Under the pieces are notes generated by a model. The model was given only the letters and a program-made list of their open reading frames with translations. It had not been told where the DNA came from and did no database searches. Of a stretch of 64,000 nucleotides of DNA, positions 4,284-34,442 are shown piece after piece. A program made the position numbers and the translations under genes. The stretch is from the NCBI GenBank assembly GCA_964187785.1, contig CAXLNC010000509.1, positions 434,001 through 498,000 on the forward strand. The letters are read 5' to 3'. The stretch comes from Amphiscolops sp. MND2022. Lineage: Eukaryota. Position 1 is the stretch's first letter; the number at the start of each line of letters is the position of its first letter.

Positions 4284-4602
4284 TTGAATTATAGGAAGAC
4301 GAAATATAGAAAGACGAAGAAAATTGTTGATGTAAAAGTGAGGATCATATGATGATGCGTGAAATATAGAAAAATTTTCAGAAGAGATTACAGAAAATCA
4401 GGCAAATAGAAATAGGAAAAGGTTTATTCAAGATTACAGAAGAGCAGGTAGATGGAATTATTTTAGAGGGATGAATATCGTTTGAGTGTTAAGAATCAAA
4501 AAGTGAAGAGAGTGAAAGACAGGAACAATGAAAAGTGAAACAAGGAAGTGTAAGAGGAGTGAAAATAATATTATTCAGGAGAGGAAAAGAACGAGATGAT
4601 TA

Positions 4603-7310: not shown

Positions 7311-7329
7311 AATTTTTTTATTTATGGGT

Positions 7330-10078: not shown

Positions 10079-10079
10079 A

Positions 10080-10527
10080 TTTGATTCAAAATTGCTGTAG
10101 AAGGAGTATTATGGAATATTGGGGTAGACGGATGAGTATTGTTAACAGAGGGTTTATATTGAAAATTAGAGTATTGTTTTGTGTTGGAGTGTGATCTACT
10201 ACAATAGGGATAGTTACGTGGTTTAGAAGGAGGACGGTAGAGAGAATTATATCGCCTAAAAGAGTTATTATTATACCTAGAGGAGCGTTCGCGAGAACGA
10301 GGATAGTATTTGGATGGACTACGAGAAGAGGTAGAATTATAGTAGGGACGTGAGAAAGAATATTATGGTTTAGAAGAAGATTGGTTATAATGTTTGTCAT
10401 ACCGAGATCTATTACGATCGTAGTATGGAGAATGGTTATGGGAGTAAGAGATATCATTGAATCGAGAACGAGAATTTGAACGCGAGAGAGACCGAGATTT
10501 ATATCTGGAGTCACGAGAAGATCTACG
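10080..10527 (-). pseudogene. gag: gag of element A, 3' part (Arg/Ser/Tyr-rich tail), split from the 5' part by element B
   Basis: Aligns without a gap to B 27500-27960 and joins 31475 across the insertion (GAGAAGATCTACGATAGGGGTTACTG vs B GAGAATATCTGCGGGAAGGGTTACTG). Confidence 0.85.
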
Positions 10528-10531
10528 ATAG

Positions 10532-10859
10532 TAAAGTACTTGGTTGTTATCGTTATTAAATGTTAAGAGAGAATTAGGTCTTTTGTCTGAAGTACGATTA
10601 GTACTTTAAGCGACGCTAACAGAGCTGCAGTTATTAGGTCTTTGGTTGAAGACAACTAATCGATTCAATTAAAGTTGTGTTCTACAAATCAGAATTCATG
10701 GTATTGAATTTGAGTAGTTACATCAATCAATTCATTTTACATATAGAATATTAATCGAGTACATTCATAAATGAGGTGCACTGTTCTAAAGTCTAGACAT
10801 ATAGGGGGCGGAGGATAATTATAAATCATGAAATATTTGGTATATCATCTGGTATATCA
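10532..10859 (-). repeat. 3' LTR of element B
   Basis: Direct repeat of 31136-31470 with ~19 differences by eye (~5-6%), including a 6-bp indel. Confidence 0.95.
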
Positions 10860-15100: not shown

Positions 15101-15434
15101 GGACAGCGGAATATTGTTGAAGATTGGGAGAAGTGGCGACTGCATCTTTGGGGTGAAGAGAAGGAGTGGGGTTGGTCATCGAAACTGGAGATTGAAGAGA
15201 AGAAGAAAGCACTGGAAGAGTAGTTGAAGCAGTTGTTGTCAAGAGAGAAGAAATGGGTGGCAATTGAACAGTAGAGGTTGAAGAAACAAGTGATGCCACA
15301 GACAGAGGGGAAGAAGTATCAGTGGATGAAAGAGCGAACGTCGAAGAAGTAGAAGTGACGGAGAATGGCAGAAAGGAGTCGAGGGGTTGATTATGAAGAG
15401 GATATGCCAGAGTGGAAGGAGGATAAGATGACAT
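12151..15434 (-). pseudogene. Accessory ORF Y of element B, interrupted by the 2.4-kb insert
   Basis: MSSYPPST...DAVATSPNLQQYSAVRQLTNDLQRKKPRHPRRPQLP...RRLVHTAVYKQK...HNCSNNNY | insert | ...IEPITPSSQ...DLDNLVTSLNDVE*. Confidence 0.78.
12354..14777. mobile_element. Unclassified 2.4-kb insertion, probably a non-autonomous DNA-transposon-like sequence
   Basis: Absent from the element A alignment and lacks the purine skew of the flanks. ATAATT duplicated at 12348-12353 and 14778-14783. Imperfect inverted termini TA|CTCTCTATGGCA (12369) and TGCCATAGAGTG|TA (14547-14560). Confidence 0.6.
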
Positions 15435-16145
15435 TACTGAAACAAAATTATGGTTGAGTTATTTTGTATTAATTTTATATATTAATTTTATATAATTCGG
15501 AGCAATTTAATATAGATACAGAGAATGTTGTGATGGAATTTATTGATGTCGGAGAAGAAAAAATATGAGTTGAAAATTGGAAAATTGAAATTCGTTAAAG
15601 TAGTGTGTTCTAGAGATGTTGAAGGAACAAGTGAAAATAGAGAAATTAAAGAAGAGAAAATACTTTTAGAGATAATAGAGTTATGAAAAATTAGGATTAG
15701 GTTGTCAAAACTCATGAAAGAAGAACAAGTGAAAATGTCAAGTGAATAGATCTAAGAACAAAAGGAACTTATAGGAAGAAGTGTCAAGAGAAAAGGGAAA
15801 ATGAATGATATATGTTAATTAGGAGTGAAAAAAATAATTGTGTAAGAAGTCAATGAAAGATAAGATTTAGGAAATGGAAAGAGTTGTTATCAAAGGAATT
15901 GAAATGAGTTCAGGTATGATTGATGAGAGATTTGAAAAGAGATAGACAAGAAGTCTGTGAGAGAGGAAAAGATTCTTAAAAAAGGAGAAAAAATTTCAAA
16001 GTATTGGTATTTATATTTGAAGGTGTGATCGGGAGTAATTACCGAAGTAACTGAAGGCAGGTGAAATTGGTCAGAAATTGGATTGAAAAGAAATAGTGGT
16101 TAGAAATTTGATTTAAAGAAAATTTACCAATAGGAGAGAAGAAAT

Positions 16146-17640
16146 TTAAGATGAAGTGAATTGAGGAGGAGTTTCAAGTAAAACAAGTTTTTTAAGCAAG
16201 TCGTTAACACGTATTGTAGAGAGTGTTAAATTTTGAATATCTGTTGAATGAAGTTGAAGTAAGGATTGGAGATTACGGAATGTGTCAAAAATATGGTTTA
16301 TTAAAACAAAAGGATCGGTATTAGGAGCAATTTCAACATGAGGACGGAGTAGAGTAAGAATTTCTGACACGAATTTGTCAGTAGGGCAGGAGAAAGAATT
16401 GATACAAACGTTAGGATTTGCAGTTTGGAGAACATAAGAAGTAGATGGAGGAGGAATTGTTGAAGGAGGAGCCTGAGAAGGTTCAGGTACATTATTAGGA
16501 GGAGTATGTTTAGGAAGAGACTGGAAAATTTCATCTGAGACATTTAAAGAGAAGTAATTGATTTGTTTTTTTCAAAATGAATGAGGAGAATTTTGCAATA
16601 ATGAAATTGAGTTGGGCGAGAGAATAATGTTTGTGAATTAGAGCTGTATATAGAGAGCGGTAATGATCATCAAGAGCTGCTTCCACTAATTTGTTCATTT
16701 TCGGAAGGAAATTGGGAACGGCATTAGGGATGTGGGTTGGAAGAAGAAAATCATCATTAACATTAAGAGCTTCTTGAGGAACGAATAATGGACGAGAAGG
16801 GTCATGGTATGACGATAGAATGAAATATTGTTTAACAGGGTCATAATTACGAAATGTTCCGATTGTGAAGAGATGGTTTAAGGAAGAGTGAGAGTGGTAT
16901 GAAACTGGAGAAGTAAATTTGTGATTTTGAAAAATGAAATTTTGAGGGTGTTTTTGTTCGAGAAAGAGTTGATAAGTCTCATGGTGAAGTTTTTTAACAG
17001 AAGGAGTTGTGGTTATATCGTTAGGACTAGTATTTAGATCGTGGTGAGTCGGTTTAAGAAAATTAAATTTAAATTGAAAGAAACGAATACGATTATTCTG
17101 CCAAAAAGCGAGTTGTGGTAAGTTTTTGGAAGCATACGCAACATAGTGGTCAAAATTACGATCTTGAGGGAAGCGAAGTAGGGGTCATATATAATGAAGG
17201 GAGATTAGCTTTAAAGTTCGGATGGGTACGGAGGAAGTCATTTGTCATGGTATTGGATTGAGAAGGAGTTTTTATTGGATGAAGAGTAGGCGGTAAGATA
17301 CCAGAATCAATGAAGACAGGATCTTCAAGAATATTATATTTCTTTTTAGGAGGAATTGGATGATTATCGATAGTAATATGAAGATTATTTGGAGGCGGAG
17401 TAGTAGAGTGACGAGTTTTAAGATTAGTAGAGGGTGGTTTAGTGAGAGACTGAGAAGTAGTAGAATTTCCATTTACAGTAGGTTCTGGAGTATTGTTAGT
17501 ATCAAGAGGAAGTGAATCATTGATTGACGAATGACATATCAAGAGTACCAGATTTAAGAGAAAGCGGGGGCGACAAGGAAGCGATGCTTGACAGAAGTTC
17601 TTCCTCTGGATTTATAGTTACCGTTTTGGATTTAGAAAGA
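16146..17640 (-). pseudogene. Accessory ORF X of element B (~490 aa if frameshifts are repaired, unknown function)
   Basis: Long, mostly open frames: EELLSSIASLSPP..., ORF 17156-17542, ...TFRNYDPVKQYFILSSYHDPSRPLFVPQEAL...LVEAALDDHYRSLY..., ...SEILTLLRPHVEIAP...LETPPQFTSS*. Confidence 0.55.
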
Positions 17641-17954
17641 AGAGGAAGGAAAGGTGGGAAGATGTTTAGTATAAATAAACAACTAAGAAAATGATGGTGG
17701 TACAAGTGTGCGTGGTGTGGGTAATAGAAAAGATTATAAATGTAAGTAAGATTTTCGTGAAAAGTTCAAGACAAATGATTTTGAGAAAGTAAGGAGAAGT
17801 GACCAAAAGAGAAGCGAGAATGATGACAAATGAAATGGGAAGTAATTTAAGATAACAGTAATTAGTATGTAAAGGAGGTAAAATAATAATATTCAAAATC
17901 AATTCGTTGGGGATTAAGTTAGGGTATTAATATGCAGGATAGAAAATGATGGAA

Positions 17955-20725
17955 TTAAAAGTTGATAGATTGTTCAGGAGGAAAAGGGCAAGAAGAATAA
18001 ACTTTGACAGGACTGTCAGATGGGTCAAAAATATTATTGACAGAAGTTAACGGGATGTCATTAGTTTTAATTGGCGGCGGAGTAGGGGGTTAAAATTTAG
18101 TAGATTGTCAGAGGTTATGTATGGGGGAATCATTGGACGAATTATCACAATTGGTGTCATCAGGAGGAGGAGAATTATGCAAATATATGGGAGAAGATAA
18201 TGAAGATTTTTGGGGAGGTCGAGGAGAAAGATTATTATGAGGGAGAAGGTGAGAATTAAATTTTTGGAGGTGGGGGTGAAAAATCTTCGGTGTTAGAGGA
18301 TTGTGATGATCAATGGGAAGAGAATGAAGAACAGAAGAAGAAAGAGGTTTGATTGGGGAAGAATTAGGCGAAGATCTTTGCATTGGGGTTTTATTTTTTA
18401 AATTAAGGAGTTTTGTTTTGGTGTTAGTATGATACTTAGGAGGACGAGGTTTGGGACTAGAAGAAATAGTGTGAGTTTTCGCTAATGGGGAATGGGGTGA
18501 ATCTGAATCGTCAGATTTTGATTGTGAATTAGATGATTTAATCTTAGCGGTCATCATGGTTTGGGTAAGAGTTCCAAAGAGACCAAATCCTAAGGCAGTT
18601 ATAACAGAAAATTGTTTTTTAAGCAAATTTCGAACAGTGAATGAACGATAAATACTAAAGAGTGTGTTGAAAGCGAATTGTAAGAAAAGAGCGGTAGAGA
18701 AAAAGATTCCACATTGGGTTAAAATATACCATGGATAGCCAAAAGTTTTATGAAAGCATCGGTAAACCAGTCAGGAGAGAAGAATGGGGTTAGTTTAACA
18801 TGTAGTCGTGAAGACCATTTCGGAGTGATCGGTAAAGATTATCTGGAAAAGAACTGGCAGATTGTTGAATCATAAATTCATAGCTAATACCTTTTCCAAG
18901 GAGTTGAAGAGTAATGTCAGAATGTTTAGTGAATAAACTCGGCTCCAAAAATGTTTTAGTTCCTTTTGAGAATAAATGCCAGCATCTTGAGCAGTGAAGG
19001 TATTAGGACTAATAGCAGTTTGGATTTGGGTTGGTTCAAAAAGGAGAGGGGGATCTTTTTTTATAGGTTGAGGAGTTAAAACATAGTATTGATCGGTATC
19101 TTGGTCAAGAGAAATAACATTTTGAGAATTATTTACACAAGGAATTTGATTGGCATATTCGAAAGTTTGACGTGTAATAGGGTCGACATACATAACAGTG
19201 TCAAGATAATTGACAGAAATTTTGTCATAGCATTGATCAGCAATGTATAAAGGTGAAAGATGATGAGGACAATCATATAACCAGGCAGTAGAGCCTTCAA
19301 CATATAAAAAGTTACTACGGTTTTGGGTTAAGAGGAAACCAACAAGTTGTGGATTTTTAACAGACATGGCGAGGATTGTTAAAAATTGGGTTCGTTCGAC
19401 TTCACATATAGTATGAAGAGTATTAAGTTCAGCAACGGACATGCTTTTAATGACATGATTTATAGAATAGTCAATTTTAGTGTTAATATGAGCTTCGTAA
19501 TCAATGGTGGCAAAATTATTTGAAGAGTTTAGAGCAGGGAAAAGAATTTTGTTTTGGGTATGAATTAATTCTCCAGATATTAACGGGGTAGTAAGTTGAT
19601 TGTATTGTTCATTTTGTGGAAGTTGAAGAGGATTAGGTTTACTAGTATGCATATTAAAACCTTCTTTATATGTTATGAAAAGATCAGGATATTGAGTAAG
19701 ATGTGAAGGAGTGGGTTTATTACAAAACATTTTATTTTCAGGGTAAATTTCAAAACGAGAGAGGCGGGTTTGAGACTTGGTATCGTGATAAGGAGTATCT
19801 GTTGGAATAGTAGAGGAGTGATTATTGAAAAAGTGTTCAGTTTCAAGCCAATAACGGTTTTTGAGCTTAGACTTTCTACCAATAAAGGAAGTAATGGAAA
19901 AGATCAAACAAAGTTCTTCAGGGAACCAAACAATGGTGAATGGTGTTAATATAGTTGGCTTACAAAAACCATCATCGTGGAGACAAGGTAAAGTATGTCC
20001 ATGGTAAATTAGTTTTTTGTCTTTATCATCGTAAGTAATTTCAATTTCTTTTACGATAAGAGACCAGCTATCTTTTCCGATAATGTATTCATAGCGATCC
20101 CAACAAACAGCTTTTTCTCTTAGAGTTGAGTTTAATACTAATTGTGAATTGGCGATCCAAGCAAAAGCACCATAATGAAAGGTATTTAGTTTAGTAATAC
20201 GAAAGGGGGGTTGTTTTGTTTCTAAAAGGCGTTGTTTTTCAATATCATCGAAGAATGTAAAGGAATTGGAGTAATTAAAAGCGTCTAGTTGAGGGTTGTT
20301 AGTTCCGTTCAAATGGCGGATAGCATGTTTGCATTCTGTAGGATCGAGAGTACTGGAAGATTGGGACGTTCCATAGTATTTTGGCGATAATCAGTACGAT
20401 CATGACGACGATATTTGTAATCCGATTGGGCACAGACAAATTTTCCACGTTTTACATAAGCTTCACAGGTCCAAGCTTTAAGACGTTTAGCTTTAGCGCG
20501 AACGAAAACATTGACAATAGCACGGGTACTTTCGAAAGCAGATGGAGCTTGAGCGCATGGTTGGACTCGAGTAAGACTGAACTGTCTTAAATTATGTTGT
20601 TTAAAACAATCGTAGTGAGAGACTAAAAGGTCCGAAATATGATCAGAGGAGGAAGCAATTTGAGAAAAGACTAAGAAAAGGGTAGAAAGAAAATAGAAGA
20701 GCGAGTGAAAAAAGAGGAAATGCAT
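17955..20725 (-). pseudogene. env: env (class III fusion glycoprotein-like) of element B: signal peptide, Cys-rich ectodomain, TM, long tail
   Basis: ORFs 20309-20725, 18870-20312 and 18108-18626 joined by frameshifts. N-terminal signal-like MHFLFFHSLFYFLSTLFLVFSQIAS. Repaired TM region FGYPWYILTQCGIFFSTALFLQFAFNTLFSIY...VITALGFGLFGTLTQ. Confidence 0.88.
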
Positions 20726-20763
20726 TTTAAAAGTGGGCAGTATTTTTCAAAAAGGTGAGGGTA

Positions 20764-22049
20764 TTAAGAAATGTAATGGAGCCGTGTAAAAGACCGAAAA
20801 GGGGGATGGTCGCTGACGAAGAGACTAAGATTTGTAGCAATAAAAGGGTGAGGAAGAGATTTAAAATTAACTGTTGTATGTGAAGGAATGGGGTGAGGAC
20901 TTAAGTTATGAAATTTTACGGTAATTTCAAATTTAAGTTCTAAATTCGTGTCTTCAAGGCGAAGAAATTCTTTACGGCGACGTACATTTGAAAGATGGGG
21001 ATTAGAATTAAGTTTATGGGTGGCAAAGTAAAGAAAGCGAGGATCTTGGTGGGGGCTACTGACAAGAGTGTTGTTTACGATTAAAGGGTAATCAACACGA
21101 TTAGGTGTAGGAGGAGTAGAGTATTGATCAGTAGTAAGATCAATGTTAAGTAAATGACTATCAGATAAAAGAATAGTGGATTTTTGAGAGGTGGGACGAG
21201 AGAAAAGGTGACCAGATTGATTATAAGAAGAAATAGAAGAACGTTGAGAAAAATTAGTGTCAATTCCCGAAGTTGGAGAGTTTTCCGCTTTAGAGAGAGA
21301 GTCCGAAGAAAGAGATTGAGCGTGGTGGCGTAGAAGAGAAGAGTTAGTTCTTGCGAGAGAAGGAGAATGACGACGATTATTGCGAAGATTATATCTATGA
21401 CGAAGCCAAGGGTGAAGAGTAGATTCGGAAATAGTGTCAAGAAGGTTATCCAAAGAAGAAGTTGTATATTTAGAGGCGGAATTTGAATGAGGAAGACGAG
21501 GATAAAGAAGAGAGCAAGTAGTTGAATCGATTTCGCTTAAATCGGACTTCATCTGACGAGAATCAAGAGATTCAAGTGCATGGATTTTGAGAGGTTTAGG
21601 TGGGGGAAGTGAAGGTTGAGAGGCGATATGAGAACAAGTTGGAGGTATTGAAAGAGAATTATCTGAGAGCGTCTGCGAAAAAATTTTATGGAGGTATGTA
21701 TAAGTTTTGGTTTAGGAAGAGTTGGATTATTAATATTTCGAAGGAGAATAGGGTTAATATCACTAGGATCAGGGATATGAAAAGAAGAAGGAGGTGGAGA
21801 ATGGGTAGGGGTTATATTGAAAGGGGAGTCAGTATTGGAAAGTGGGAGAGTTAAAGATGTTTGAGTTTGTTGAGGAATAGTAGTTTTAAGAGGAGTGTGA
21901 GTTGGAGTTTTAACAGGGGTGGTATCTAAAGAGGGGGTGATTGGTATGGGGTCCAGGGGAGGTTGTTGAGGAGTTGGTAAAAAACTTTGTGATGAAGGTA
22001 GAGTATCACTTGAAATAGAAGAAGAGGGTTGAGAAGAAGAATCAGACAA
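20764..22049 (-). pseudogene. Accessory ORF W between pol and env (Ser/Pro/Thr-rich, ~430 aa with one frameshift)
   Basis: ORFs 21549-22049 and 20764-21552. The frame of the second stays open upstream to a T-run near 21680, consistent with one gene broken by a homopolymer indel. Confidence 0.6.
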
Positions 22050-22354
22050 GAATACAGTAAGATCCAGGATGGAAACAAAATGGAGATATATTAAAGACTT
22101 CTATTAAGTATGAAAAGATGAACAAAGATTGATATTGGAAAGGAGCAAAAATGTAAATGGAAAATCGTGAAGAGAGATTTGAGAAAAATACTAATTCTGT
22201 TTTGATGAAATCAAGTTTTGATGAGAGCAACAGTTCAGCTAGATTTCACTACAGTAAAGTGAAGAAAGGTATATAAGATACAGGTACTGATTAGATTGTC
22301 ATGTGTCAGACTTTAATAGAAGTCAAGGACAATACGTAAAAGTAGGAAAGCCAT

Positions 22355-24254
22355 TTAAAAAAATGAATATTTAATCAAGGGGGAGGTCGATGTTTGGTTT
22401 GGATGAATTATAATGTCGAGGAGGGAGTGAACGTAGATTATATGGGGAAAGAGGAGCTCGTTTATAAGTGGATTCATTTTGAGAGTTAGGTGATGGAGAG
22501 GAGGAAATATCAGGAGAATCAGCAACACGAGGGAAGAACTGAGGAAAGGAATCATTTGAGGAGTTTGAATAATAAATGGGGTTTGGAAGCATTTCAAAGT
22601 CAGAGTCGTGAGAATCAATTGTATTATCAAGGTTATCTTGAGAAGAAGAATGCGAAGGGTTGTGGTAGATAGGAGTAGAGGTGGGAAAATTATCTAATTT
22701 CTCTTGTAAGGAAAAATAATGTGAAAAACTTTGATATCTAGGAATAGGAGTGGTAGAATTATTGAATTGTTTAATTTTTGAGGATGTAGAGGTTTGAGAA
22801 TGATTTGAATTGTGTTGTAAATCTAATGAGGAAAATTGAGAAAAGGTATCTTGGTAAGATTCAGTATCGGGGTTTTTAATAAGAGAAAGTGTAGAATGGT
22901 AGTGTTTAATATATGGAAAAATTATAGGTTCTTTGGGATAATATAGTAGAATATGATTTCGATGGGTTTGAACTGTAGAACCATCTTGAGACAGGGGTTC
23001 ATGCGTTACTTCAGAGAGATGGTTAAGTATTTTATGGGCCAATTCGGAGAGGTTTGAGCTTTTTTGAAAAATTAACAGGTTTAAAATTCGTACGGATGAC
23101 AAAAGTATTAAGAGGTAATTGTTTTAAATGAGTTGTTTCGAATGTAGAACTTTGAGAATTGAGTTTATGATTTAAATGGCGGTGGACAGTTGAATATATT
23201 TCCAACATTGCAACTTCAGCCGCTAAAAAACCATGGGGAGATAGGTTTATCAAGGAGTGAGTGGAGGAAGGGATTAAGGTCTTGAGTGCTATAATGTGAA
23301 TGAGGGGGAAGAGACTCACAATAAGTTGCGATACAATTTTTTGAAGCATCACGAGATAGGTTAAGAGAAAAGGTAAGAGGTATACGAGGATGGGTTTGGA
23401 AAACAATCTGATAAGGGGAAAGTTTAAGTTGAGGAAGAGGTGTTGTATTATGGGCATATGCGAACATTTGAGTTTGAACTGACCAGTTAGTAGAAGGATT
23501 TTGTAAAAATTTTTGGAGATGAGTTCTAAGATTTCGGTTTTGAACTTCCACTAAACCGTTTGTCCATGGCGAGTAAGGAGTTCGAGGTGAGTGATTAGTC
23601 TGGAAAAGAGAACATAGATGAGCCATATCTTGATTGATATTCAGTACCTCGGTCTGTAACTAGGTATTGAGGGGGACCAAACTTTGTGATCCAGTGATGG
23701 AGGAGGGTTTGAATTGCTTATTTGGAAGTAATATGAGGAACAGGGTTAGTAACAACAGAGTGACTAAATGCGTCAATAATTAAAAAAATATAGGAGTTGT
23801 TTTGAGATGATGGAGCAATAGGGCCTTTAGTGTCCATGGAGATCCGGTAGTTGAAGTGAGTAGCACTCTCGTAAAAAGGAAGGGGAGGAGAAATGTTTTG
23901 GGGTTTAATAGGGAAATGTTTATTAGTTTGACATTCAATGCAGTCATGGATGAAAATAGAGAACCATGAAGGTAAATGAGGGACAAAATAAAATTGGTTA
24001 AATGTCTTAATAGAGAGTTTTTCACCTGAATGACCATGATAATGTGTTTTACTAAATGCAGCATAAAAGAGTTTAAATGGTAAACATATACGTGTATGGT
24101 TAAAAGAGGGTTGAGTTTTAATAAAGATTTCTTCAAAAAATCGAGAGTTAGGTGTATTATACTGAATAAGATGAGAGTTTGGATCAATATATAAATGTTG
24201 GAATTGTCTATAATATGTATATAAAAAGGAGTTTGCTTTAATACCTGGAGTCAA
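22355..24254 (-). pseudogene. Integrase of element B with GPY/F-like module and long low-complexity tail
   Basis: HYHGH...CIEC zinc finger, RISMDTKGP, IIDAFS, SPWTNGLVEVQN (catalytic E), KKLKPLRIGP. Frameshifted. Confidence 0.92.
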
Positions 24255-24694
24255 GGAAGAAGGTCTTTGTTTTTGTTTTAACCATTAATATACTGAAGAA
24301 AGGACAGGATCATCCTTTTGAGCTTGAAGTAGAATGGGTAATGTCAAAAAGGTGTCGGAAGAGAGGAAGAAATTATCAAATGCTTTACAGTGAGCAAAGA
24401 AGGAAGGGTCAAAAAATGGTAAAGATTGAGTATGTATAGGCTTTGGAGAAGTTGGGGTTATAGCATTACTGTCAATAGTATTATTAACAAGAGAGGGGAA
24501 GTTGGTAAAGTTGGTTAAGATATCTTGAGACAAGTTAATATCGTTGAAATAATGGTGTTGTATTTCAGTAAAAAGGGTGTGAAGTTCATGAGGTGGTTGC
24601 GAATAATGATGAGGAATTCGTTTAAGAACGGAATCGCCTGTGTCATATAAATCAATTCATTAAAAGAGGATTTTCTTGGAGTAAAGTTTTAACT

Positions 24695-25370
24695 TTATTT
24701 TTGACAGGTTTTTTTGTATTTATTTAGGAATGAGGAAACAGATTGAAAAGAAAAGGAATCAAGAGGAGTATATTTAACGATATTGCCTTTATCTTGGATA
24801 CGGAGTGTGAATTGATCATCAGCATAGTCAGCTAAGATTAAGTGTGAATCATTTTTTTGTGTAGGGAGTACATCTTCAAGTTTTATTAGATAGTGATTGG
24901 GTTTTAAACTATTATTGTTTTTGAGTTGAAGGAAATCGATATGTGGAGGGAGAGTTTTGTGTTGGAGTTGGCATGTTTTAGTATTAATAGTTGAAAAATC
25001 TCTACTAAGCATATCAGCAACAGTAAGGTTTGTACCAGCTGTGTGAATTATTTGTAGGTTTGGAAATTTGGTTAATAGCATTTGAGCTTTATATTGTCTA
25101 GGAGTTAGGTTTCCTTTACGAGTGAAAAGGAAAAGAATAGGATTGTGATCTGTAAAAATAGTTATCGGGAATTTGGAGCCAATTATAATAAATTCGTATT
25201 GGGAAAGGGCAAAGGTAATAGCACAAAATTCTCTATCATAGGTAGAAAGTTTTTGTTCTTGGGTTGTTAAAATACGAGAATTATGAAAAATCATTTGCAT
25301 TTTGTTTTTGGAGTTAGGTTGAAATAAAACTGCACCTAGGCCTATTAAAGAGGCATCTACAGTTATTTAA
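24695..25370 (-). pseudogene. RNase H of element B
   Basis: TVDASLIGLGAVLFQ...YDREFCAITFAL...IFTDHNPILFL. Confidence 0.92.
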
Positions 25371-26400
25371 AATGGATGAGTAGTATTTGGGATAGCGAGT
25401 CCTGCATCTTTAGAAAGAGAAAGTTTGATTTGATTGAAAAGTTTATCTAAATCAGGAGTCCATTCAAATAGAATATCATCGCGGAGAAGAGTGTAAAAGG
25501 GTTTCAAGGAAATGTGTAGTTTGTTGATGAATTTGGAGTAAAAGTTCATTGATCCAATAAAGCGCAATATTTCTGTTTTAGAAGTGGGTGTCTTTAATTG
25601 GTGGATATCATCAACTTTAGAAGAGATGGGTTTGATTGTATTATTACCAATTTCATGTCCAAGAAATTTGACGGTGAGGAGGATATAGAAAGTTTTTTCA
25701 GGAGCAATTTTAAGATTATTTGTTTGACAAACTTGGTAAAGTTGTTCAATTAACTTTAACAAGTGAGGTTTTGTATGTGCAAGAAGGAGAATGTCATCTA
25801 TATAAACTAATGCAAAACCTTGGTCAAGTTTTTGAAAAAACGAATACATTTGTTTAGTAAAAAAATTGGGTAGGCCTTTAAGACCATAAAATCCACGAAT
25901 GAAAGCGTAAAGTTTGTCACCAGAAGAGAAACTAGTTAAGGCTATAGTTTCTTCATCTAAGGGAGCGTGAGCGTAAGCATACATGAGGCCAATGGCGGAT
26001 ATGAATTTTTTGTTGGCACGTGCAAGTTGGGGAGCTAAATGTTCAATAGGCCAGGATTCGAAAGATTGATCGGTATTTGAGTTAAGGTGTCGTGCGTCTA
26101 AAACGACTTTAATAGTATCTCCTTTGGGTATAATAATAAGGGGGTTTAAAATTGTGGTGACATAAAGGGATTTGTCAGAATGAGTGGAACCAATTTGGCG
26201 AATAATATTGTGTTTTTCTAATTCATCGAGGAGTGTTTTTAATTTTTCTCTATAATGGATAGGAACTTTTGTAGGTCGTTGGGTTCGAAGTTTGGCATTG
26301 GGTTTAAGACGGATTCTAAAAGGAGTAGCTATTTGACCAACATCGTTTTTATGTGTTGAATAGCAGGTTCGATATTTAACAAGAATGGAGCAGAGTTGTA
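25367..26400 (-). pseudogene. Reverse transcriptase of element B
   Basis: VVLDARHLNS...AIGLMYAY (the first catalytic Asp reads Gly here, Asp in A)...GFYGLKGLPNFF...LVYIDDILLL...VKFLGHEI. Confidence 0.95.
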
Positions 26401-27043
26401 AGTATTCTTCGTCAGTGACATCAGAGTACTGGAATTTAAATTTATTGAGGAATTGTTGAGTGTCTGGTTAATATTGTAATGGTGGAAGAGGTCAGGTTAA
26501 AATTTGAGATGGTTGCAAATTGTTTATTTCATTTTGAGGGTTGCGAAGAGAAGAACGTCGACGGGGAGGTTTTGGTTCCGAAAGGTCAGGATAATAAGAA
26601 TTGAAATACGGTGTGTATTAAGGAGTTTACATCATTAACTTTATAGTGAGTTGGTTGAACAGTAGGGGCTGGAACCTCAATGTATCCAATATATCCAGGG
26701 GCAATGACAGAATGGTGGGTAATGTTTTGAATAATAACAGAACAACTTGAAGGTTCGGTATTAATGTTCTGGTAGATTTGGAGAAAATCAAAGGTTGAGT
26801 TGAAGCGTGTATTAAAAAATGGATGAGGTGTGGAAGGGAAAAAGACTTCATTATCAGAAGTTTTAAACGTTAAAGGAAGTGTTGGTTGAAATGGGAAATG
26901 GATAATTTGAGAAGCGTTGGGTTTAAATTAGAGCTTATTTTTAACATCGATAGTGTAGATGTAAGAAAAATATGGATAATCTTTTTCTTTATGAGCTGTA
27001 AAAGGGAGGGTGTTAATGCGAGATTCATGTGGAGTATTAAATG

Positions 27044-27499: not shown

Positions 27500-30080
27500 G
27501 TTTATTTCAAAATTAGCTTCTGTATTGGAGTTGCTTTGAAGAGGTGGTGTAGATGGATGTGTAAGAATTATGGATGGTTTGTATTGGGATTGAGAATGAT
27601 TGTTTGAATTTGAATGAGATCTACTACGTTAACGATCATTGCGTGGTTTGGAAGGATGACGATGAGGAGAATTGTATCTATTAAAAGAAGAAAAATTTGA
27701 GGAACGTTCACGAGAACGAGGGTAATATTTAGATGGACTACGAAAGGAATTAGAGTTATAATATGTTCGTGAAGAAGTGTATGATTTGTAGGGATTTTGA
27801 TTTTAATGTTTATCATATCGAGATCTATCACGATGGTGGTAAGACGGGGGTGATAAGAAAATGTACGGGGTGGGTTATTATTATATCTAGGACGTGAATG
27901 CGAACTTGAATAAGAACGAGATTGATACCGAGTTTCGCGAGAATATCTGCGGGAAGGGTTACTGTGGCTTCGACTACGGTAGCGAGGATAATGAGATTTA
28001 TTTGGAAGGGCTTTTAAAATGTTGATAAAAGGTAAGAGTCGGAGATCTAGATTGTGGTTTTGATTCTTTGAGCATATTAAGTCGGCGAAAGCAAGTTGAA
28101 ACAGAGTGGTTATTTTTATGGCAAAAGGAACAATATTTCTTGAATTGGGGTTTCGATTTATTGTTAGGATCCATTACTTGAACTTGTGGAGATTCGGAAG
28201 GAGGATCTTGAATGGTTGTACTTTGTTGAAAAGTATTAGACAGAGTGTTAATTTCAAGGGAAAGTTCTTGAGTTTTAATTTTTTTAAACATTAGACATTT
28301 AGACATTTAGACATTTTCATTATCCTTTTTAACAGGGGCAAGAGCTTCAATTTGAGCATGATATGCGTGTTTTTGAGAAACGAATTGCTTCTTAAAAATT
28401 TGGTGAAAAGATGACCAATCATCTTTATAAACTTGTGGGAGACGATCATACCAATTGGAAGCAGTTCCAGTGAGGGAACAATAAAGGAGAGACATTCGAC
28501 GAGAATGCCAAGTTAGATATGATTGAATATCTACAGGTTGAGGTCCAAGTTGAAATGTCACTCGAGTACTAAGATGTGCTAAGAATTTTTCAGGAGGATA
28601 AGTTTGGTCAAGGCCATCAAAGAGTTTAATAGGATCTGATAGAGCAGCAAAAGGGACAGAAGGAGTGGTTGGAAAATGAAGAGATGAATAGAGAGAAGAA
28701 GAATTGAAAGGTAATGTTGAAGTAGGAGGAATAGGATGAGGGGGGTTTGGAGGGGGTTGGAGAGAATAAGTGGGGAAGTTTTGAAAAGTAGGATAGAGAG
28801 AAACATAAGGGTTGTACGAGATGGATTGGGTAGTAGAAGAAGCAGTTTGAGAAATAGAAGGAATTGGTCGTAGGGAATAAGAAGAAAAGGGATTTTGATT
28901 AAATAAAGAAGGATCATGGGTGGAAGAAGGTGGGGGGGCTTTGAGGGAGGGAGTGAGTGGAAAGAGTATTATTTAAAGAAAGAGGAATGGGGGGTACTGT
29001 GGGGATTTGGAAAACCGAAGGTTGAACAGTATTATAAGGAACGGCAGGTGGAGTATTAGAAGGTGTAGTATACTGGCTCGGAGAGTGAGAAGTAGGAAGG
29101 TTTTCATTAATTGTGGTGACTTGAGAAGTAGAAGTGGAAATGTGTTGATTTATCGATGGGGTAGGGTTTACTACAGCATTTGAAGATGAGTGTGAATAGA
29201 AACATTGGAAATTGTATCAGTTGAAGGTGGTAAATAGTGTTGTTGGTTGTAAGGACGAACAGGAGGAGGAAGGTTCAGACTTTTATCAAGACTGTTGGAG
29301 TCATAGGCAAGGTATTTACAATGAGAAGAAGGAAAATCAAGAAGATTATAATACTGAGGGTGTTGATTATCAGGAGTATCGAGAAAAGGTGAAAGTTCAT
29401 TTTGAGTAAACTGTTGAGGAAAATTTATACAGGCATCTTGGAATTTCGAGTGCCAAACGAGTTGGTAATTATGTCGAAAGAATTTTCGAAGGAAAAGAGA
29501 GTATAGTTAAATTTGTTCTTTTGTTTTTGTATTGAGGGTAAGATTCTGAAAGAATTGGTATTGAAAATGATGAATTTGAAGAATATCGGTGGTAAGCCAC
29601 TGGTGGGGACTGTCTTCAATAGTGCGAAATTGTTCAAAATTGGGAAGGTCAAAAAGAGAGGTTCTTTTTGGAGAAGGTCTTGTATGGAAGAAGGGTTAAA
29701 AACATGTTTAGGTAAAAGATTATTTTTTTCTTGAGAAAGGTTGTAAAGACATTAGCATTAGGGATATAGATATCGTTAGGATAAATATTTTTTCGAAAGG
29801 TATCAGAGCGAGTTGTGAGAGAAGTAAAGGGAATAGAAAATGGGGGTTCTTCAAAATTTGCAACAAGAAAATGGGTGTCAATATAGTATAAATAAGAGTC
29901 ATGATGTTCACGAATAAGAGAGGTTGTATAAAAATCTTCCGGGTAGGTTTCAAAAGAAAGAGGGGTAGTGGAGTTGTAAATAAGATTGTTAGGAAATTGA
30001 GTGAGAGTTTGTGAAATATCACGGGTAACACGGTGAGAGGTATTGAAAAGAAAGGGAAGGGGTTGTATGGGATCAGTCAT
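27500..30080 (-). pseudogene. gag: gag of element B (unusually long; internal ~225-bp deletion at ~28300)
   Basis: N-terminal domain MTDPIQPL...ETYPEDFY..IREHHDSYLYYIDTH, a P/S/T-rich spacer, capsid-like SLTGTASNWYDRLP...WSSF..IFKKQF, CCHC knuckle CSFCHKNNHSVSTC, RS-rich tail. Confidence 0.9.
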
Positions 30081-30311
30081 TAGGAGTGTCTATGGGGATT
30101 GTAATATAGACAAATCCAATCCATAATAACTTCAGGATGGACCGATGGTTCAGTAGGGAGGGGAAAAACGATGAATTTTTTGACGAAAGTAGGTATAAAA
30201 TGAGAAGAGAGACGGATGAAAATATATAGGTGTACTGATAAGAAGAAGTGAAAAGAAAAATAGTTGCTGAAGGGCAAGGCAAGGATTGGGGTGAAGGAAG
30301 AGGAGGTTCAT
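30080..30311 (-). CDS. Small upstream ORF 3 of element B (frameshifted N-half; stop overlaps the gag ATG)
   Basis: C-terminus PTEPSVHPEVIMDWICLYYNPHRHS* vs A PTEPSIHPDIILDRIWLYFYPHRHS*, with many synonymous third-position changes. The N-terminal assignment (MNLLFLHP vs MYLIFFHS) is less sure. Confidence 0.65.
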
Positions 30312-30431: not shown

Positions 30432-30545
30432 TTAGTGGAAGAGAGATTCGACAATTTTTTCAATGAGGAGCATTAAGAAAACTAGCATTGCAAAAATGTA
30501 TGAAACGAAAAGAATAATGGTGGCAAGGTTTTCGGTAAGAAACAT
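30432..30545 (-). CDS. Small upstream ORF 2 of element B, 37-aa single-TM peptide
   Basis: MFLTENLATIILFVSYIFAMLVFLMLLIEKIVESLFH*. Same length and near-identical in A (34190-34303). Confidence 0.75.
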   Translation of the reverse strand: MFLTENLATIILFVSYIFAMLVFLMLLIEKIVESLFH

Positions 30546-30563: not shown

Positions 30564-30701
30564 TTATGCTCTATATTGTTCAATAACATGATGAAGGAAA
30601 GGGAGAATAAATTTATCAACAAGAAGAAGGACAATGGCACAAAGACCAAAAAGGTAGAGGAGGATTAGACAAATACGAACGGAGTCATTAAGGGAAGGCA
30701 T
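30564..30701 (-). CDS. Small upstream ORF 1 of element B, 45-aa single-TM peptide
   Basis: MPSLNDSVRICLILLYLFGLCAIVLLLVDKFILPFLHHVIEQYRA*. Homologue in A at 34314-34442. Confidence 0.75.
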   Translation of the reverse strand: MPSLNDSVRICLILLYLFGLCAIVLLLVDKFILPFLHHVIEQYRA

Positions 30702-30799
30702 GAAAAATTTGGTAGGAAGTAGAAATGGGAAGGAATTTCAAATAGGAAATTTTATGATAGAAATGTGGGAGGTAAAAAAGAACATGAAAAAAAGGTGTA

Positions 30800-31060
30800 G
30801 CAGGGAAAAGTGAAATCACGCCAAAGGGGATTAGGACAGAAGAAGAAAGTGTACCAGCGCGTAGCTGAATCACGAAAGGTGATTAGGACAAAAGAGGATG
30901 TTGTACCAGCAAAAAGCTGAATCACTTGGAAATGATTAGTACAGAAAAGATATGGTGTGCCGACTACTAGGTCGAACCACGTGATGTGATTAGTACAGAA
31001 GAAGATCTGAGTTGTGTACCGACAATGAGTCGAATCACTGTGTGTGATTAGTTCAGAAAG
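30800..31060 (-). repeat. Leader array of ~5 structured ~50-56-nt repeats (element B)
   Basis: Recurring GTAC-CAGC/CGAC-loop-GCTG/GTCG-AATCAC-loop-GTGATTAGTACAG on the + strand. Confidence 0.85.
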
Positions 31061-31120: not shown

Positions 31121-31133
31121 GGTGGTCGCACCA
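31121..31133 (-). promoter_or_regulatory. Primer binding site of element B (TGGTGCGACCACC)
   Basis: TGG start 2 nt downstream of the 5' LTR. The primer tRNA is not identified; the first 7 nt would fit a tRNA ending CGCACCA, such as Gly. Confidence 0.8.
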
Positions 31134-31135
31134 GT

Positions 31136-31470
31136 TAAAGTACATGGTTGTTATCGTTATTAAATGTTAAGAGAGAATTAGATCTTTTGTCTGAATTACG
31201 ATTAGTACTTTAAAAGATGCTAACAGAGCTGCAGTTATTAGGTCTTTGGGTGAAGACAACTAATCGATGAAGATTCAATTCAAGTTATGTTCTACAAATC
31301 AGAATTCATGGTATTGAATATAAAGTAGTTACATCAATCAATTCCTTTTACATCTAGAATATTAATCGAGTACATTCATAAATGAGGTGCACTGTTCTAA
31401 AGTCTAGACATATAGGGGGCGGGGGATAATTATAAATCATAAAATATTTGGTATATCATCTGGTATATCG
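31136..31470 (-). repeat. 5' LTR of element B
   Basis: Direct repeat of 10532-10859. The outer terminal base differs (G instead of A on the + strand). Confidence 0.95.
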
Positions 31471-31474
31471 ATAG

Positions 31475-33825
31475 GGGTTACTGTTACTTTGACTACGGTA
31501 ACGAGGATATTGAGGGCAATGTTTAGCGGAGTGTGTTTTAAAATGTTGATAAAAAGAAGGAGTTGGTGATTTAGATTGTGGTTTAGACTCTTTGAGCATA
31601 TTAAGTCTACGAAAGCAAATGGAAACAGAGTGATTGTTTTTGTGGCAAAAGGAACAATCTTTTTTAAATTGGGGTTTGGATTTATTGATAGGATCGATTG
31701 CTTGAACCGGAGGAGTATCTTGAATAGTTGCATTTTGTTGAAAGGTGTTTGAAAGAGTGTTAATTTCAAGAGAAAGTTCTTGAGTTTTGATTTTTTCAAG
31801 TGTAATATCTTCAGAATTAACCATATTAACAAGAGAGTGAAAAGGAATAGAATGTTCCATGGAACTGGAAATGTGTTTAACTTGGCGTTTATTAGCAAAA
31901 GCTTTTAATTTTTTTGGGAGACCACGGGTGAAAATTTCATTACATTTGAGATTAATAGTGGATGGATATTCGTTATACCGGCCTTGTTTAACTAGAGTTT
32001 AAACTTTCAAAGCGTAGTGGCGAACATTTTCATTATCCTTTTCAACAAGGGAAAGATCTTCAATTTGAGCATGGTAAGCGTGTTTTTGAGAATAGAATTT
32101 TCCTTAAAATTTGGAGAAAAACAGATGACCAATCATTTTTTATACTTGTGGGAGACGGTCATACCCAATAGAGGCAGTTCCTGTTAAAGAACAATGAAGG
32201 AGTGACATACGTCGAGAATGCCAGGTTAGGTATGATTGAATATCAAGAGGTTGAGGACCGAGTTGAAATGTTACACGGGCACTGAGGTGGGCTAGAAGTT
32301 TTTCGGGGGGATAAGTATGATCTAAGGCATCAAAAAGTTTAATAGGGTCAGAGAGAGCAGTAAAAGGAACATCTGGAAAACTGGAGGAAGCCGAAAAGGA
32401 GGAGGGTTAATGGGGAATGCAGAAGTTGATGGTGGGAGAGGGTTAGGAGGAAGATTAGGTGGTTGAAAAGAGATAGAGGGATAGCTTTGAAAACCAGGAT
32501 GAAGTGAAGCATTTGGGTTATATGAGGTAGGTGGAGGGTTAGAGACAGAAGATTGGGAAGTAAAGAGATGGTGCGGCATAGGTAAAGATGAAGGAGTGTT
32601 AGGATTTATTAGTGAGGGATTTGGAGGAAAATAGGTTTGAGTAGTGTGGGATTGAGGTTATGGTAAAGTGGTAAAGTGGTTATGGTAGTGTTGGAAGAAA
32701 GAGGAATTGGAGGTAGTGTTGGGATTTGAAAAACGGGGGGTTGTGTAAGATTAGCGGTTCTCATAGAGGGGGTACTAGAAGGAGTAGTGCATTGGTTTGG
32801 TGTTGGAGAAGTGGATGGTTGAGTAGTTATTATGTTGGTTTGGGATGTAGGCGGATCTAAATTTGGATCAACAAGAGAGTGTGCATTAACTACTGCATTA
32901 GAGGTGGATGGATATACACGAGTTTGTATAGGGACATTGGAAGTAGTATCAGTGAAGGAGGGTTTTGTTTTGCATAAGAACGAATGGGTGGTGGAAGAAT
33001 ACGACTTTTGTTAATACTATTATTGTCATAAGTGAGGTAGGGAAAATGAGTCGGAGGAACTTCAAAAAGATTATGAAATTGAGGGTGTTGATTTTCAGTG
33101 GTATCGAGAAAGGGTAGAAGTTCATCTTGAGTGAACAGTGAGGGGAAGTTGACTGATTTGAACTTTGGAGTGCCAGACAAGTTGGTATTTATGTCTAAAT
33201 AATTTTCGAAGGAAAAAAAGAGAGTATACTTGACTTTGTTCTTTTGCACTTGTACTAAGAGTAAGGTTTTGAAAGAATTGATATTGAAAGTGGTGATTTT
33301 GAAGAATATCTGTGGTCAGCCAGTGATGAGGGTTATTTTCAATAGTGCGAAATTGTTCAACATTAGGAAGGTCAAAAAGAGATGCTTTTTGAAGGAAGGT
33401 TTGTATTGAGGATGGGTTAAAATATGTTTAAGTAGGAGGTTATTCTTTTCTAAAAGATTATTGAGAAAAGTGGTGAATACATGAGCAGTTGGAATGTAGA
33501 TGTTATTGGGATGAATGTTTTTTCTGAAAGTATTAGAAGAGTTTATGTGTGAAGTGAAAAGAATAGAAAATAGGGGTTAACCAGGAGTTTCAACAACAGA
33601 GTGTGTGTCAATGTAGTATAAGTAAGAGTCGTGATGTTCACGAATGAGGGGTATAGTATAAATATCTTCCGGGTAGGTTTCAAAAGAAAGAGGAACAAAA
33701 GAGTTGTAGATAAGATTGCGAAGAAATTTGGGGATTGTATTTGAGAGTTCACGTGTAATACGATAGTGGGTGGTGTCAAATGCAAAGGGGAGAGGGAAGA
33801 GAGGAGAAGGAAGAGGGTCAGACAT
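31475..33825 (-). pseudogene. gag: gag of element A, 5' part
   Basis: MSDPLPSP...ETYPEDIY..IREHHDSYLYYIDTH, a capsid-like region (32000-32330), and CSFCHKNNHSVSIC in ORF 31456-31860. Confidence 0.9.
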
Positions 33826-34060
33826 TATGAGTGGCGGTGAGGATAAAAGTATAACCAAATACGGTCTAAGATGATATCGGGATGAATGGAAGGTTCAGTG
33901 GGCAATGGTTTAAGATAGTGGTGGATATTGAATAGGAGATCGTGAAAACAAAAATAGAGAGAAGAATAAAAAACGAGGAGAAAAAAGAATAGAAGGAATG
34001 AAGGATAAAAATGTTAAACAGAGGTAGGAAAGGAGTAGAGTGGAAGAAAATTAAATACAT
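33825..34060 (-). pseudogene. Small upstream ORF 3 of element A (frameshifted; TAATG overlap with gag)
   Basis: ...PTEPSIHPDIILDRIWLYFYPHRHS TAA-TG. Confidence 0.62.
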
Positions 34061-34189: not shown

Positions 34190-34303
34190 TTATGAAAAAA
34201 GGAATGCTACTATTTTCTCAACTAGTAACATTAGGAAAACGAGCATTGCAAAAATTTATGAAACAAAAAGGATGGTAGTTGCAAGATTTTCGGTAAGAAA
34301 CAT
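34190..34303 (-). pseudogene. Small upstream ORF 2 of element A (TAC to TAA at codon 16)
   Basis: MFLTENLATTILFVS*IFAMLVFLMLLVEKIVAFLFS*. Confidence 0.72.
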
Positions 34304-34313
34304 GATGAAAGTG

Positions 34314-34442
34314 TTAGTTACTAGTATCTCGAGGGAGGAAATCAATGATGAAGTTGTCGACAAGAAGAAAAATGATTGAAAAGAGGCCAAAAAGATACAA
34401 TAAGATAAGACAAATACAAACAGAATCATTGAGAGAAGGCAT
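34314..34442 (-). CDS. Small upstream ORF 1 of element A, 42-aa single-TM peptide
   Basis: MPSLNDSVCICLILLYLFGLFSIIFLLVDNFIIDFLPRDTSN*. Confidence 0.75.
   Translation of the reverse strand: MPSLNDSVCICLILLYLFGLFSIIFLLVDNFIIDFLPRDTSN

Follow-up and report, generated by a model that had tools for sequence, protein, structure and literature searches.

The stretch analyzed here (the window) comprises 64,000 nucleotides (nt) from Amphiscolops sp. MND2022 (assembly GCA_964187785.1, contig CAXLNC010000509.1, positions 434,001 to 498,000), and its left part is occupied by two long terminal repeat (LTR) retroelements, both encoded on the reverse strand (Table 1). Element B (31469 to 10532, 20.9 kb), which is Ty3/gypsy-like and carries an env-like gene, is nested in the gag gene of element A (insertion 10527-31474, with the 5-bp duplication CTATC); element A starts at approximately 35197, is cut at 31475, resumes at 10522 and has its 3' LTR at 995-669. 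The 1.05-kb leader of element B carries open reading frames (ORFs) and hence, as judged from its sequence, is not an untranslated region. The LTR is followed by the primer-binding site, approximately 430 nt that are nearly free of AUG, three small ORFs of 45-48, 37 and 78 codons, and gag. The first and second ORFs are separated by 8 nt and the second and third by approximately 115 nt, whereas the third overlaps the gag start codon in the pentanucleotide TAATG. In both window copies the full 78-codon ORF is broken: only a 14-codon in-frame ORF still reaches TAATG in element B, and in element A the frame that reaches it contains no ATG. The intact 78-codon form was found in other genomic copies.

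The first-pass annotation of this window had reported TAATG at the gag ATG of both elements (AGA CAC TCC TAA-TG ACT GAT in B and CGC CAC TCA TAA-TG TCT GAC in A, sense strand) and had described gag as the fourth ORF of the genomic RNA. Both descriptions are accurate, given that conserved ORFs of approximately 45, 37 and 78 codons come first, and the 12 synonymous differences between A and B that it counted in the 25 codons preceding the overlap are exact, along with 5 identical codons and 8 amino-acid changes. The overlapped ATG can be taken as the genuine gag start because the gag frame is closed upstream of it (four codons upstream in element B), runs into the gag domain and has its next in-frame Met only at codon ~393, so that no other ATG is able to open the first ~392 gag codons. 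In one copy (L027), the frame from this ATG runs for 562 codons into the capsid-like Retrotrans_gag domain, and in a young copy (L076+L090, C5:390500-404730) it opens a single uninterrupted gag-pol ORF of 2640 codons that contains no stop or frameshift. A separate 223-codon ORF that is open in many B copies was considered and rejected, given that a tblastn search with the 562-residue L027 frame shows scattered frameshifts in almost all copies and that young copies possess a single gag-pol ORF.

Searches of the 1.07-Gb genome (G000) returned 368 first-look candidates for the B query and 434 for the A query, and 40 of each were scored. Of the 30 loci from the first search, a set that includes the window copy, 29 have TAATG. 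Removal of both window copies, seven duplicates (tandem or segmental), a mis-mapped locus and the outlier L050 left a set of 24 B-type and 25 A-type copies; here TAATG is found in 23 and 19 copies, respectively, the exceptions being TATTG, AAATG (three copies), GAATG, TGATG and TAATA. A young sister family close to B has the pentanucleotide in all 14 copies, always as TAATGA. From a more diverged family, D, which in the third ORF shares with B 54% of the bases and 31% of the residues, we retrieved the DNA of 12 loci, six of which could be mapped at the junction, the other six being broken or truncated before it; four of the six retain a 79-80-codon ORF that ends in TAATG on a gag starting MAD..., the fifth has CAATG and the sixth is altered. 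The D family also encodes, further upstream, a 37-residue ORF and a 38-residue version of the first ORF. Loss of the overlap in other copies, which the annotation had named among the outcomes that would speak against its proposal, is thus not what is observed: the overlap is kept in four sub-families, each of which has three small hydrophobic ORFs (38-48, 37 and 78-80 codons) ahead of gag, and the stop codon of the third of them overlaps the gag ATG in every sub-family examined.

Members of the young family all carry an intact 78-codon ORF (14 of 14), and the gag frame of 10 of them is uninterrupted as far as the retrieved DNA extends (866 codons). Copies of a young sub-group differ at 17-30 of 4031 positions and one young copy has 320-nt LTRs that are 100% identical; this family is recently active. 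When a profile of the 78-residue peptide was run against a library of 1.84 billion proteins, 10 proteins were recovered, one of which is encoded 100% identically in the present genome, with 149 matches. Three of the library proteins (76, 77 and 79 residues) match the profile over its full length and, like the query, terminate in ...HS. Two others, P0115 and P0118, continue past ...HS as L/Q-W-L-I, which is the extension expected from a point change of the TAA in TAATGGCTGATC, ahead of TGGCTGATC. The 37- and 78-codon ORFs share one frame, and the 39-codon spacer between them is stop-free in B, so that loss or read-through of one stop codon would fuse the two, as in library protein P0117 (152 residues).

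Evidence that the small ORFs are genes comes from the distribution of substitutions among copies (positions are given relative to the gag ATG, at 0). ATG columns shared by A-type and B-type copies lie at -625, -612, -470, -413, -398, -236 and 0, with -513 and -44 additionally present in B. The -236 ATG opens an ORF ending at TAATG in 13 copies (78 codons in four B and seven A copies, 77 in one B copy and 75 in one A copy). Between A and B, the proportions of differing synonymous (pS) and non-synonymous (pN) sites, calculated by the Nei-Gojobori method (NG86), are 0.75 and 0.25 in this frame, compared to 0.37/0.36 and 0.21/0.43 in the other two. The differences in the 78-codon ORF fall at codon positions 1/2/3 in the numbers 21/12/31 for near-fixed A/B differences, 12/3/14 for shared B polymorphisms, 24/12/35 among A copies and 19/10/26 for ungapped intact copies, whereas the flanking spacers are flat (11/10/10, 9/16/12 and 19/19/19). 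Among intact young copies, pN/pS of the ORF is 0.27 in its own frame and 0.9-2.9 in the other two; its two halves, taken separately, have values of 0.25 and 0.34 and are constrained in this frame only. The last four codons (His-Arg-His-Ser) all vary synonymously between lineages. The upstream ORF on which the annotation built its interpretation is thus a conserved protein-coding frame by the evidence of both codon positions and pN/pS.

The two shorter ORFs show the same signature. The second (-470) encodes 37 residues, MFLTENLATIILFVSYIFAMLVFLMLLIEKIVESLFH, is intact in 18 of the 24 B copies and 6 of the 25 A copies, and is almost invariant: its product is nearly identical in the A, D and young families, and all 12 shared B polymorphisms are at codon position 3. 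The first (-625), of approximately 45 residues (MPSLNDSVCICL...GLCAIVLLLVDKF...), has 45 codons in 16 of the 24 B copies. Across six young copies of different sub-lineages, pN/pS is 0.06 for the 48-codon ORF, 0.03 for the 37-codon ORF and 0.27 for the 78-codon ORF, compared to 0.16 for the codon-aligned gag. These comparisons show, at the level of sequence evolution, that all three small ORFs are protein-coding and under purifying selection.

Each of the three peptides contains one strongly hydrophobic 19-residue window (Kyte-Doolittle 2.35-3.17), and we predict that the small proteins act as accessory factors inserted into membranes. Given that translations of the leader have a hydrophobic character in every frame (mean Kyte-Doolittle 0.58-0.95), that the sense strand contains only 10% G, that most old copies are broken, and that Pfam and ESM Atlas searches with the small ORFs found no family or relative, the upstream frames could alternatively be chance open frames in a G-poor and stop-poor sequence, or at most non-coding regulatory upstream ORFs (uORFs). 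The purifying selection is, however, specific to one frame in each of the three ORFs and is absent from the spacer controls, the lengths and peptides are conserved in four families, and all three ORFs are intact in the six young copies checked (the 78-codon ORF in all 14), which makes this explanation extremely improbable.

The state of the older copies requires a separate comment. We read the 78-codon length as ancestral and the variants as decay, because the variants of a T-run within the ORF are scattered on a tree of the 49 copies, on which at least four A lineages and at least three B lineages have the 78-codon state. The possibility that the shortened T-run forms (54 and 80 codons) were master variants was rejected, these forms being scattered on the tree beside 78-codon copies, as expected of recurrent decay. 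Homopolymer errors of the assembly were likewise rejected as the source of all frameshifts: only 43 of the 237 short indels are at runs of at least five identical bases, so that the decay of the old copies is real. We also considered a role of a small ORF as an env signal-peptide exon joined by splicing; this is unneeded, given that env has its own Met and a hydrophobic start and that selection also acts on the C-terminal half of the 78-codon ORF, but such a role might conceivably apply to a Met-less 453-codon ORF described below.

A further issue is how Gag would be made behind three small ORFs. The genomic RNA carries these three small genes, and we consider the chances to be about even that Gag is produced by ribosomes that scan and restart through them, with the last restart at UAAUG, a proposal that derives from comparison of genomic copies. 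Under this scheme, 40S subunits would enter at the cap and would start at the weak-context AUGs of the small ORFs, through leaky scanning or through reinitiation after short ORFs. Ribosomes coming from -236, or from -44 in B and the young lineages, where this AUG opens the last 14 codons, would all end translation at the UAA, already positioned at the gag AUG; the -44 AUG would intercept scanning ribosomes and deliver them to UAAUG, and a fraction of the terminating ribosomes would then restart at the gag AUG without a tether such as that provided by a termination upstream ribosomal-binding site (TURBS). The gag start and the upstream stop share one base and thus lie within the stop-restart distance of ~20 nt of TURBS-type systems. 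A more demanding version, in which this is a four-cistron RNA with three micro-membrane proteins encoded first and Gag synthesis depends on TURBS-independent termination-reinitiation at UAAUG, seems doubtful to us, although well worth entertaining.

The length of the third ORF bears on this scheme. It is 14 codons from the -44 AUG (B and young copies) and 78 codons from the first AUG, and the A and D types have the long form only. Permissive uORFs for reinitiation typically have 10-30 codons, and retention of eIF3 during elongation has been reported with a half-length of 12 codons by one study and up to 60 codons by another (PMC10275272). In view of these ranges, the 14-codon route appears comfortable and the 78-codon route marginal.

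The latter is the first of a series of observations that weigh against restart at the overlap, the remainder of which are set out in this and the following four paragraphs, next to the explanations that they favor. Conservation of TAATG adds little by itself because, with the gag ATG fixed, only two further bases are free to vary. The shortened T-run moves the stop of the 78-codon ORF to -69 in 9 of the 24 B copies, a sign that loss of the full-length ORF is frequent. The -44 ATG is missing from the A and D families (0 of 25 in A), and there is no conserved ATG between -236 and gag in these families, so that leaky scanning past the weak -236 AUG would reach gag.

This last point leads to the explanation that leaky scanning alone suffices, with subunits bypassing the weak AUGs up to gag and TAATG reflecting tight packing that plays no role in initiation. 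It accounts for the T at -3 at the starts of all three small ORFs, for the A type with no conserved ATG between -236 and the gag ATG, and for a leader purged of other ATGs, as leaky scanning requires, and it has a precedent in HIV-1 vpu/env (PMC2657110). The purging is apparent in four intact young copies, in which leaders of 1033-1085 nt contain 8-9 ATGs, only 1-2 of them outside the starts and in-frame Mets of the three ORFs, whereas a first-order Markov model of that leader predicts 6.9-7.9 such ATGs (P 0.004-0.016, the tests not being independent because the copies are related). In older copies, the total number of leader ATGs (7-9, compared to 8.0-9.4 expected) and the single ATG in the interior of the 78-codon ORF (compared to ~2 expected) do not differ significantly from expectation, the former thus adding to the points against the scheme; in the A-type rows of this count, fixed offsets cut into the first small ORF, so that the counts for the 5' segment are not meaningful. 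The depletion thus emerges only in intact young copies, once ATGs are sorted by whether they belong to the three ORFs. Purging of ATGs makes sense only if ribosomes scan the leader from its 5' end, which both leaky scanning and restart at the overlap entail.

What distinguishes the two is the presence of efficient start sites in the path. The in-frame ATG at -44, with A at -3 and G at +4, is found in 23 of the 24 B copies and in the five young copies mapped (out of 14 fetched), and in-frame ATGs with a purine at -3 are also found at -408/-405 in young copies. Scanning subunits are therefore unlikely to arrive at gag with no prior translation in these lineages: the good-context in-frame ATGs, located at -405 (young copies) and at -44 (B copies as well as young ones), should stop most of them, and three cistrons would have to be skipped in series. 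Furthermore, the lineage with the -44 ATG is the most recently active one, which is difficult to explain by leaky scanning alone but readily explained by restart at the overlap, and the stop codon lies exactly on the start codon in families that share only 54% of the bases. On balance, leaky scanning alone appears unlikely, although it is a serious competitor.

With respect to the mechanism of restart, the annotation had invoked the influenza B and calicivirus type, and this part of its proposal is not supported. The TURBS type requires a conserved upstream stretch that is complementary to 18S rRNA (PMC10275272). A search for the motif TGGGA over the 100 nt upstream of gag (-100 to -1) found it in none of the 49 copies (0 of 24 B and 0 of 25 A). 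The RNA around the gag start is weakly folded (-33 kcal/mol for 361 nt of a single sequence), and RNAalifold predicted no conserved base pairs among 16 copies between -110 and +130. Both negatives count against coupling of the known kinds, in which a long upstream ORF needs such signals; if reinitiation occurs, it is neither of the TURBS type nor of the structure-dependent SART1 type.

Alternatively, Gag could be translated from a spliced or internally started RNA that does not contain the small ORFs, or from an internal ribosome entry site (IRES) in the pyrimidine-rich leader, in which case the small ORFs would be read from the full-length RNA only. Because env, the Met-less 453-codon ORF and at least two more ORFs lie downstream of pol, the element must splice somewhere; GT dinucleotides are conserved at the primer-binding site and in the 5' repeats, and potential acceptors exist as lineage-specific AGs (B type, -11 and -51; A type, -42). 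The check for acceptors that the annotation had suggested thus gave a divided answer: no AG dinucleotide is common to the A and B types from -495 to -1, so that there is no conserved acceptor by which the second and third ORFs might be skipped, whereas the lineage-specific AGs point the other way. The purging of ATGs would be purposeless with an IRES or a spliced-out leader, the RNA structure is weak, with no conserved pairs around gag, and for the analogous MDG1 elements only unspliced LTR-to-LTR RNA was reported (bioRxiv 10.1101/2025.03.14.642691). A separate RNA or internal entry as the source of Gag is accordingly quite improbable in our estimation, and reinitiation at the overlap is the reading that we retain.

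The remaining features of the locus are those of a complex element. Element B has the two LTRs, the target-site duplication and the primer-binding site of a Ty3/gypsy-type LTR retroelement, and the order of its domains (Retrotrans_gag, RVT_1, RT_RNaseH, Integrase_H2C2/rve and Monjiviricetes_fusion) fits an env-bearing, endogenous retrovirus-like member of this type. The outer edge of its 5' LTR falls at the point where homology begins in another copy, one that adjoins satellite DNA. The TGGTGCGACCACC motif is located, with at most 2-3 mismatches, ~1030-1090 nt 5' of gag in other copies, and in element B the distance from the primer-binding site to the gag ATG is 1053 nt. The match to the env-like fusion domain has E values of 2e-18 to 2e-27 (window 18870-20390 and young copy L090:7007-9820); the gene is of the kind captured from chu-like or rhabdo-like viruses, joined here to a Ty3/gypsy element. 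A comparison of Pol sequences yielded nearest proteins with 91-95% identity, followed by ~68% and then at most 46%, with no named close relative among them; the more distant relatives, from other species, have Pol identities of 39-46%. The stretch at 4602-10522 was considered as a third element and rejected, being the remainder of element A.

Table 1. Features of the retroelements in the window (64,000 nt), in window coordinates
Feature	Position	Strand	Remarks
Retroelements	1-35,200	-	Left part of the window
Element A, first small ORF homologue	34314-34442	-	42 codons
Element A, second small ORF homologue	34190-34303	-	Split by a stop codon into 15 codons and an 18-codon tail
Element A, third small ORF	33866-34060	-	Frameshifted remnant, 64 codons from ATG 34060
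Element A, TAATG overlap	33823-33827	-	gag ATG 33825-33823
Element A, gag start	33577-33825	-	82 codons open
Target-site duplication CTATC, 5' side of element B	31470-31474	-	Partner at 10527-10531
Element B, 5' LTR	31136-31469	-	334 nt; 93% identical to 10532-10858
Element B, primer-binding site	31121-31133	-	TGGTGCGACCACC; 2 nt past the 5' LTR
Element B, tandem repeats	30795-31059	-	About five repeats of 52-58 nt each; 5' part of the leader
Element B, first small ORF	30564-30701	-	45 codons, MPSLNDSV...; one hydrophobic segment
Element B, second small ORF	30432-30545	-	37 codons, MFLTENLATIILFVSYIFAMLVFLMLLIEKIVESLFH
Element B, third small ORF, 5' part	30150-30311	-	53 codons, ATG 30311, TGA 30152-30150; frameshifted at the T-run
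Element B, third small ORF, last 14 codons	30080-30124	-	From in-frame ATG 30124; TAA 30082-30080
Element B, TAATG overlap	30078-30082	-	gag ATG 30080-30078
Element B, gag start	29649-30080	-	143 codons open; frameshifts break the copy further on
Element B, Retrotrans_gag	28307-28972	-	Pfam
Element B, RVT_1	25367-26467	-	Pfam
Element B, RNase H (RT_RNaseH)	24695-25366	-	Pfam
Element B, integrase zinc domain (Integrase_H2C2)	23718-24284	-	Pfam
Element B, Monjiviricetes_fusion	18870-20390	-	Pfam; class III viral fusion glycoprotein domain (env-like)
Element B, 3' LTR	10532-10858	-	93% identical to the 5' LTR

Between pol and env lies the 453-codon ORF mentioned above (L090:5638-6996 in the copy with identical LTRs; approximately 20400-22100 on the reverse strand of the window), which contains no Met at all, has no Pfam match and may acquire its start codon through splicing. 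Two further ORFs with no Pfam match, of 504 and 308 codons (L091:173-1684 and L091:2308-3231; approximately 14600-18800 on the reverse strand of the window), are located between the env-like gene and the 3' LTR. Including the three small ones, there are at least eight ORFs, a layout that resembles that of complex retroviruses. Copy L027 contains an 880-nt tandem duplication in pol, 99% identical, by which part of the reverse transcriptase domain is doubled (L032/L031, C12, element coordinates 7185-8939).

Each of the tandem repeats in the leader contains a small AAUCAC...GUGAUU hairpin, and the GT dinucleotides of the repeats are conserved between the A and B types; the region may serve in packaging or dimerization or as a splice donor. 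It contains no ATG in the B-type copies L003, L011 and L028 and one, at 30785, in window copy B. The base composition of the sense strand of element B is A 0.30, C 0.26, G 0.10 and T 0.35, with a plus-strand GC skew of +0.3 to +0.6; the low G content is a trait of the lineage and not a result of the decay of one copy, given that it is common to all sub-families. The right half of the window (36,000-64,000), which adjoins the retroelements, is a tandem satellite with a unit of ~233 bp, often arranged as 468-bp dimers. All three fully examined copies (L032 on C12, L076/L091 on C5, and the window) lie in or beside satellite arrays, with units of 124 nt, ~105-127 nt and 233 nt, respectively, an association that may reflect an insertion preference or better survival at such sites.

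In retroviruses and LTR retrotransposons, Gag is thought to be the first real cistron of the genomic RNA, and upstream AUGs are viewed as obstacles. The lineage described here is a recently active, env-bearing Ty3/gypsy lineage with three micro-genes before gag, a stop codon that has stayed on the gag AUG through deep divergence, and a leader nearly free of other AUGs. In its three small hydrophobic proteins (pN/pS 0.03-0.27), this retrovirus-like element also possesses accessory genes that call for an explanation. If the proposed coupling is real, the element would be the first of the LTR type for which synthesis of Gag through translational coupling is demonstrated, and the spacing of the small ORFs would set, and perhaps tune under stress, the ratio of accessory proteins to Gag.

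The closest parallel to the small ORFs is found in the Drosophila 412/mdg1 lineage, which is defined by small ORFs upstream of gag (bioRxiv 10.1101/2020.09.24.311225). As in the MDG1 group (412, mdg1, Stalker, Blood, Tabor), the ORFs are in the sense orientation between the 5' LTR and gag and show low rates of non-synonymous change. In that group, sORF1 and sORF2, the latter a membrane protein of ~70 residues, are translated from an unspliced LTR-to-LTR RNA, full-length and shared with gag, and a role in cell-to-cell transfer similar to that of fusion-associated small transmembrane (FAST) proteins has been proposed (bioRxiv 10.1101/2025.03.14.642691); in the passages of this preprint that were searched, we found no statement on the mode of gag translation or on an overlap of the gag start with a stop codon. 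There are three ORFs here (~45-48, 37 and 78 codons) compared to two in MDG1 elements, and the latter have no env, whereas an env-like class III fusion gene is present here. The third ORF has the size (78 residues, within the range of 60-210), the sense orientation and the position directly upstream of gag that characterize sORF2/FAST-like proteins, the first and second (45-48 and 37 residues) being below the 60-residue limit for sORF2. Proteins of that class have a single transmembrane domain in N-out/C-in topology; the peptides here each have one hydrophobic window, but in a leader whose translations are hydrophobic in every frame. The MGxxxS/T myristoylation motif is found in none of the three ORFs, the peptides of which start with MN/MH/MT, MF and MP, and the 15 residues after the membrane segment contain 0-1 K/R rather than the at least three of the polybasic rule, with an R-x-K-x-H-R patch a few residues further on; because of these two results, we do not file the third ORF as sORF2/FAST-like. 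If coupling at UAAUG is functional, it would offer a testable answer for MDG1 elements as well, namely how Gag is made after accessory small ORFs on an unspliced RNA.

The overlap itself also has precedents. UAAUG and AUGA stop-start overlaps support reinitiation in caliciviruses and in influenza B M1/BM2, where the downstream protein is made as a fixed fraction of the upstream one (PMC10275272). As in these TURBS systems, stop and start share bases in the present element; unlike them, it has no structured upstream element or TGGGA motif, its upstream ORF is short (78 or 14 codons) and stop and start meet in the 5' portion of the RNA. Among retroelements, the non-LTR retrotransposon SART1 couples ORF2 to ORF1 through UAAUG (Kojima et al. 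2005, cited in PMC10275272), and here, too, a downstream retroelement cistron starts in a UAAUG that overlaps an upstream stop. SART1, however, has a long upstream ORF and needs a structure downstream of the stop (PMC10275272), whereas no conserved pairs are predicted here up to +130 and the downstream gene is gag. A functional coupling in the present element would thus add a structure-free case to the short list of eukaryotic stop-start systems.

Among viruses with small or packed upstream cistrons, the Rous sarcoma virus leader has short uORFs that are translated before gag, with an effect that depends on the distance to the gag AUG (PMC2657110). By contrast, the ORFs described here encode conserved proteins under selection, and the last of them overlaps the gag AUG. 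Reinitiation of the uORF type generally takes place downstream of the stop, usually after a spacer; in the present case, the UAA contributes its final base as the A of the gag start codon. The polycistronic pregenomic RNA of plant pararetroviruses such as cauliflower mosaic virus (CaMV) resembles the RNA predicted here in that several close or overlapping cistrons are read by reinitiation (predicted in our case); CaMV, however, needs a viral transactivator and shunting over a stable hairpin, whereas for the present element no such hairpin is seen and a transactivator is not known. In the hypovirus CHV1, which likewise reads packed cistrons by reinitiation, ORFs A and B are separated by UAAUG (PMC5902531, PMC2699510). 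Our literature searches, judged from their listings, turned up no description of an LTR element whose gag AUG overlaps an upstream stop codon. Each of the two components, accessory small ORFs ahead of gag and coupling through UAAUG, is thus of a known kind, and their proposed combination in this lineage is a variant of them.

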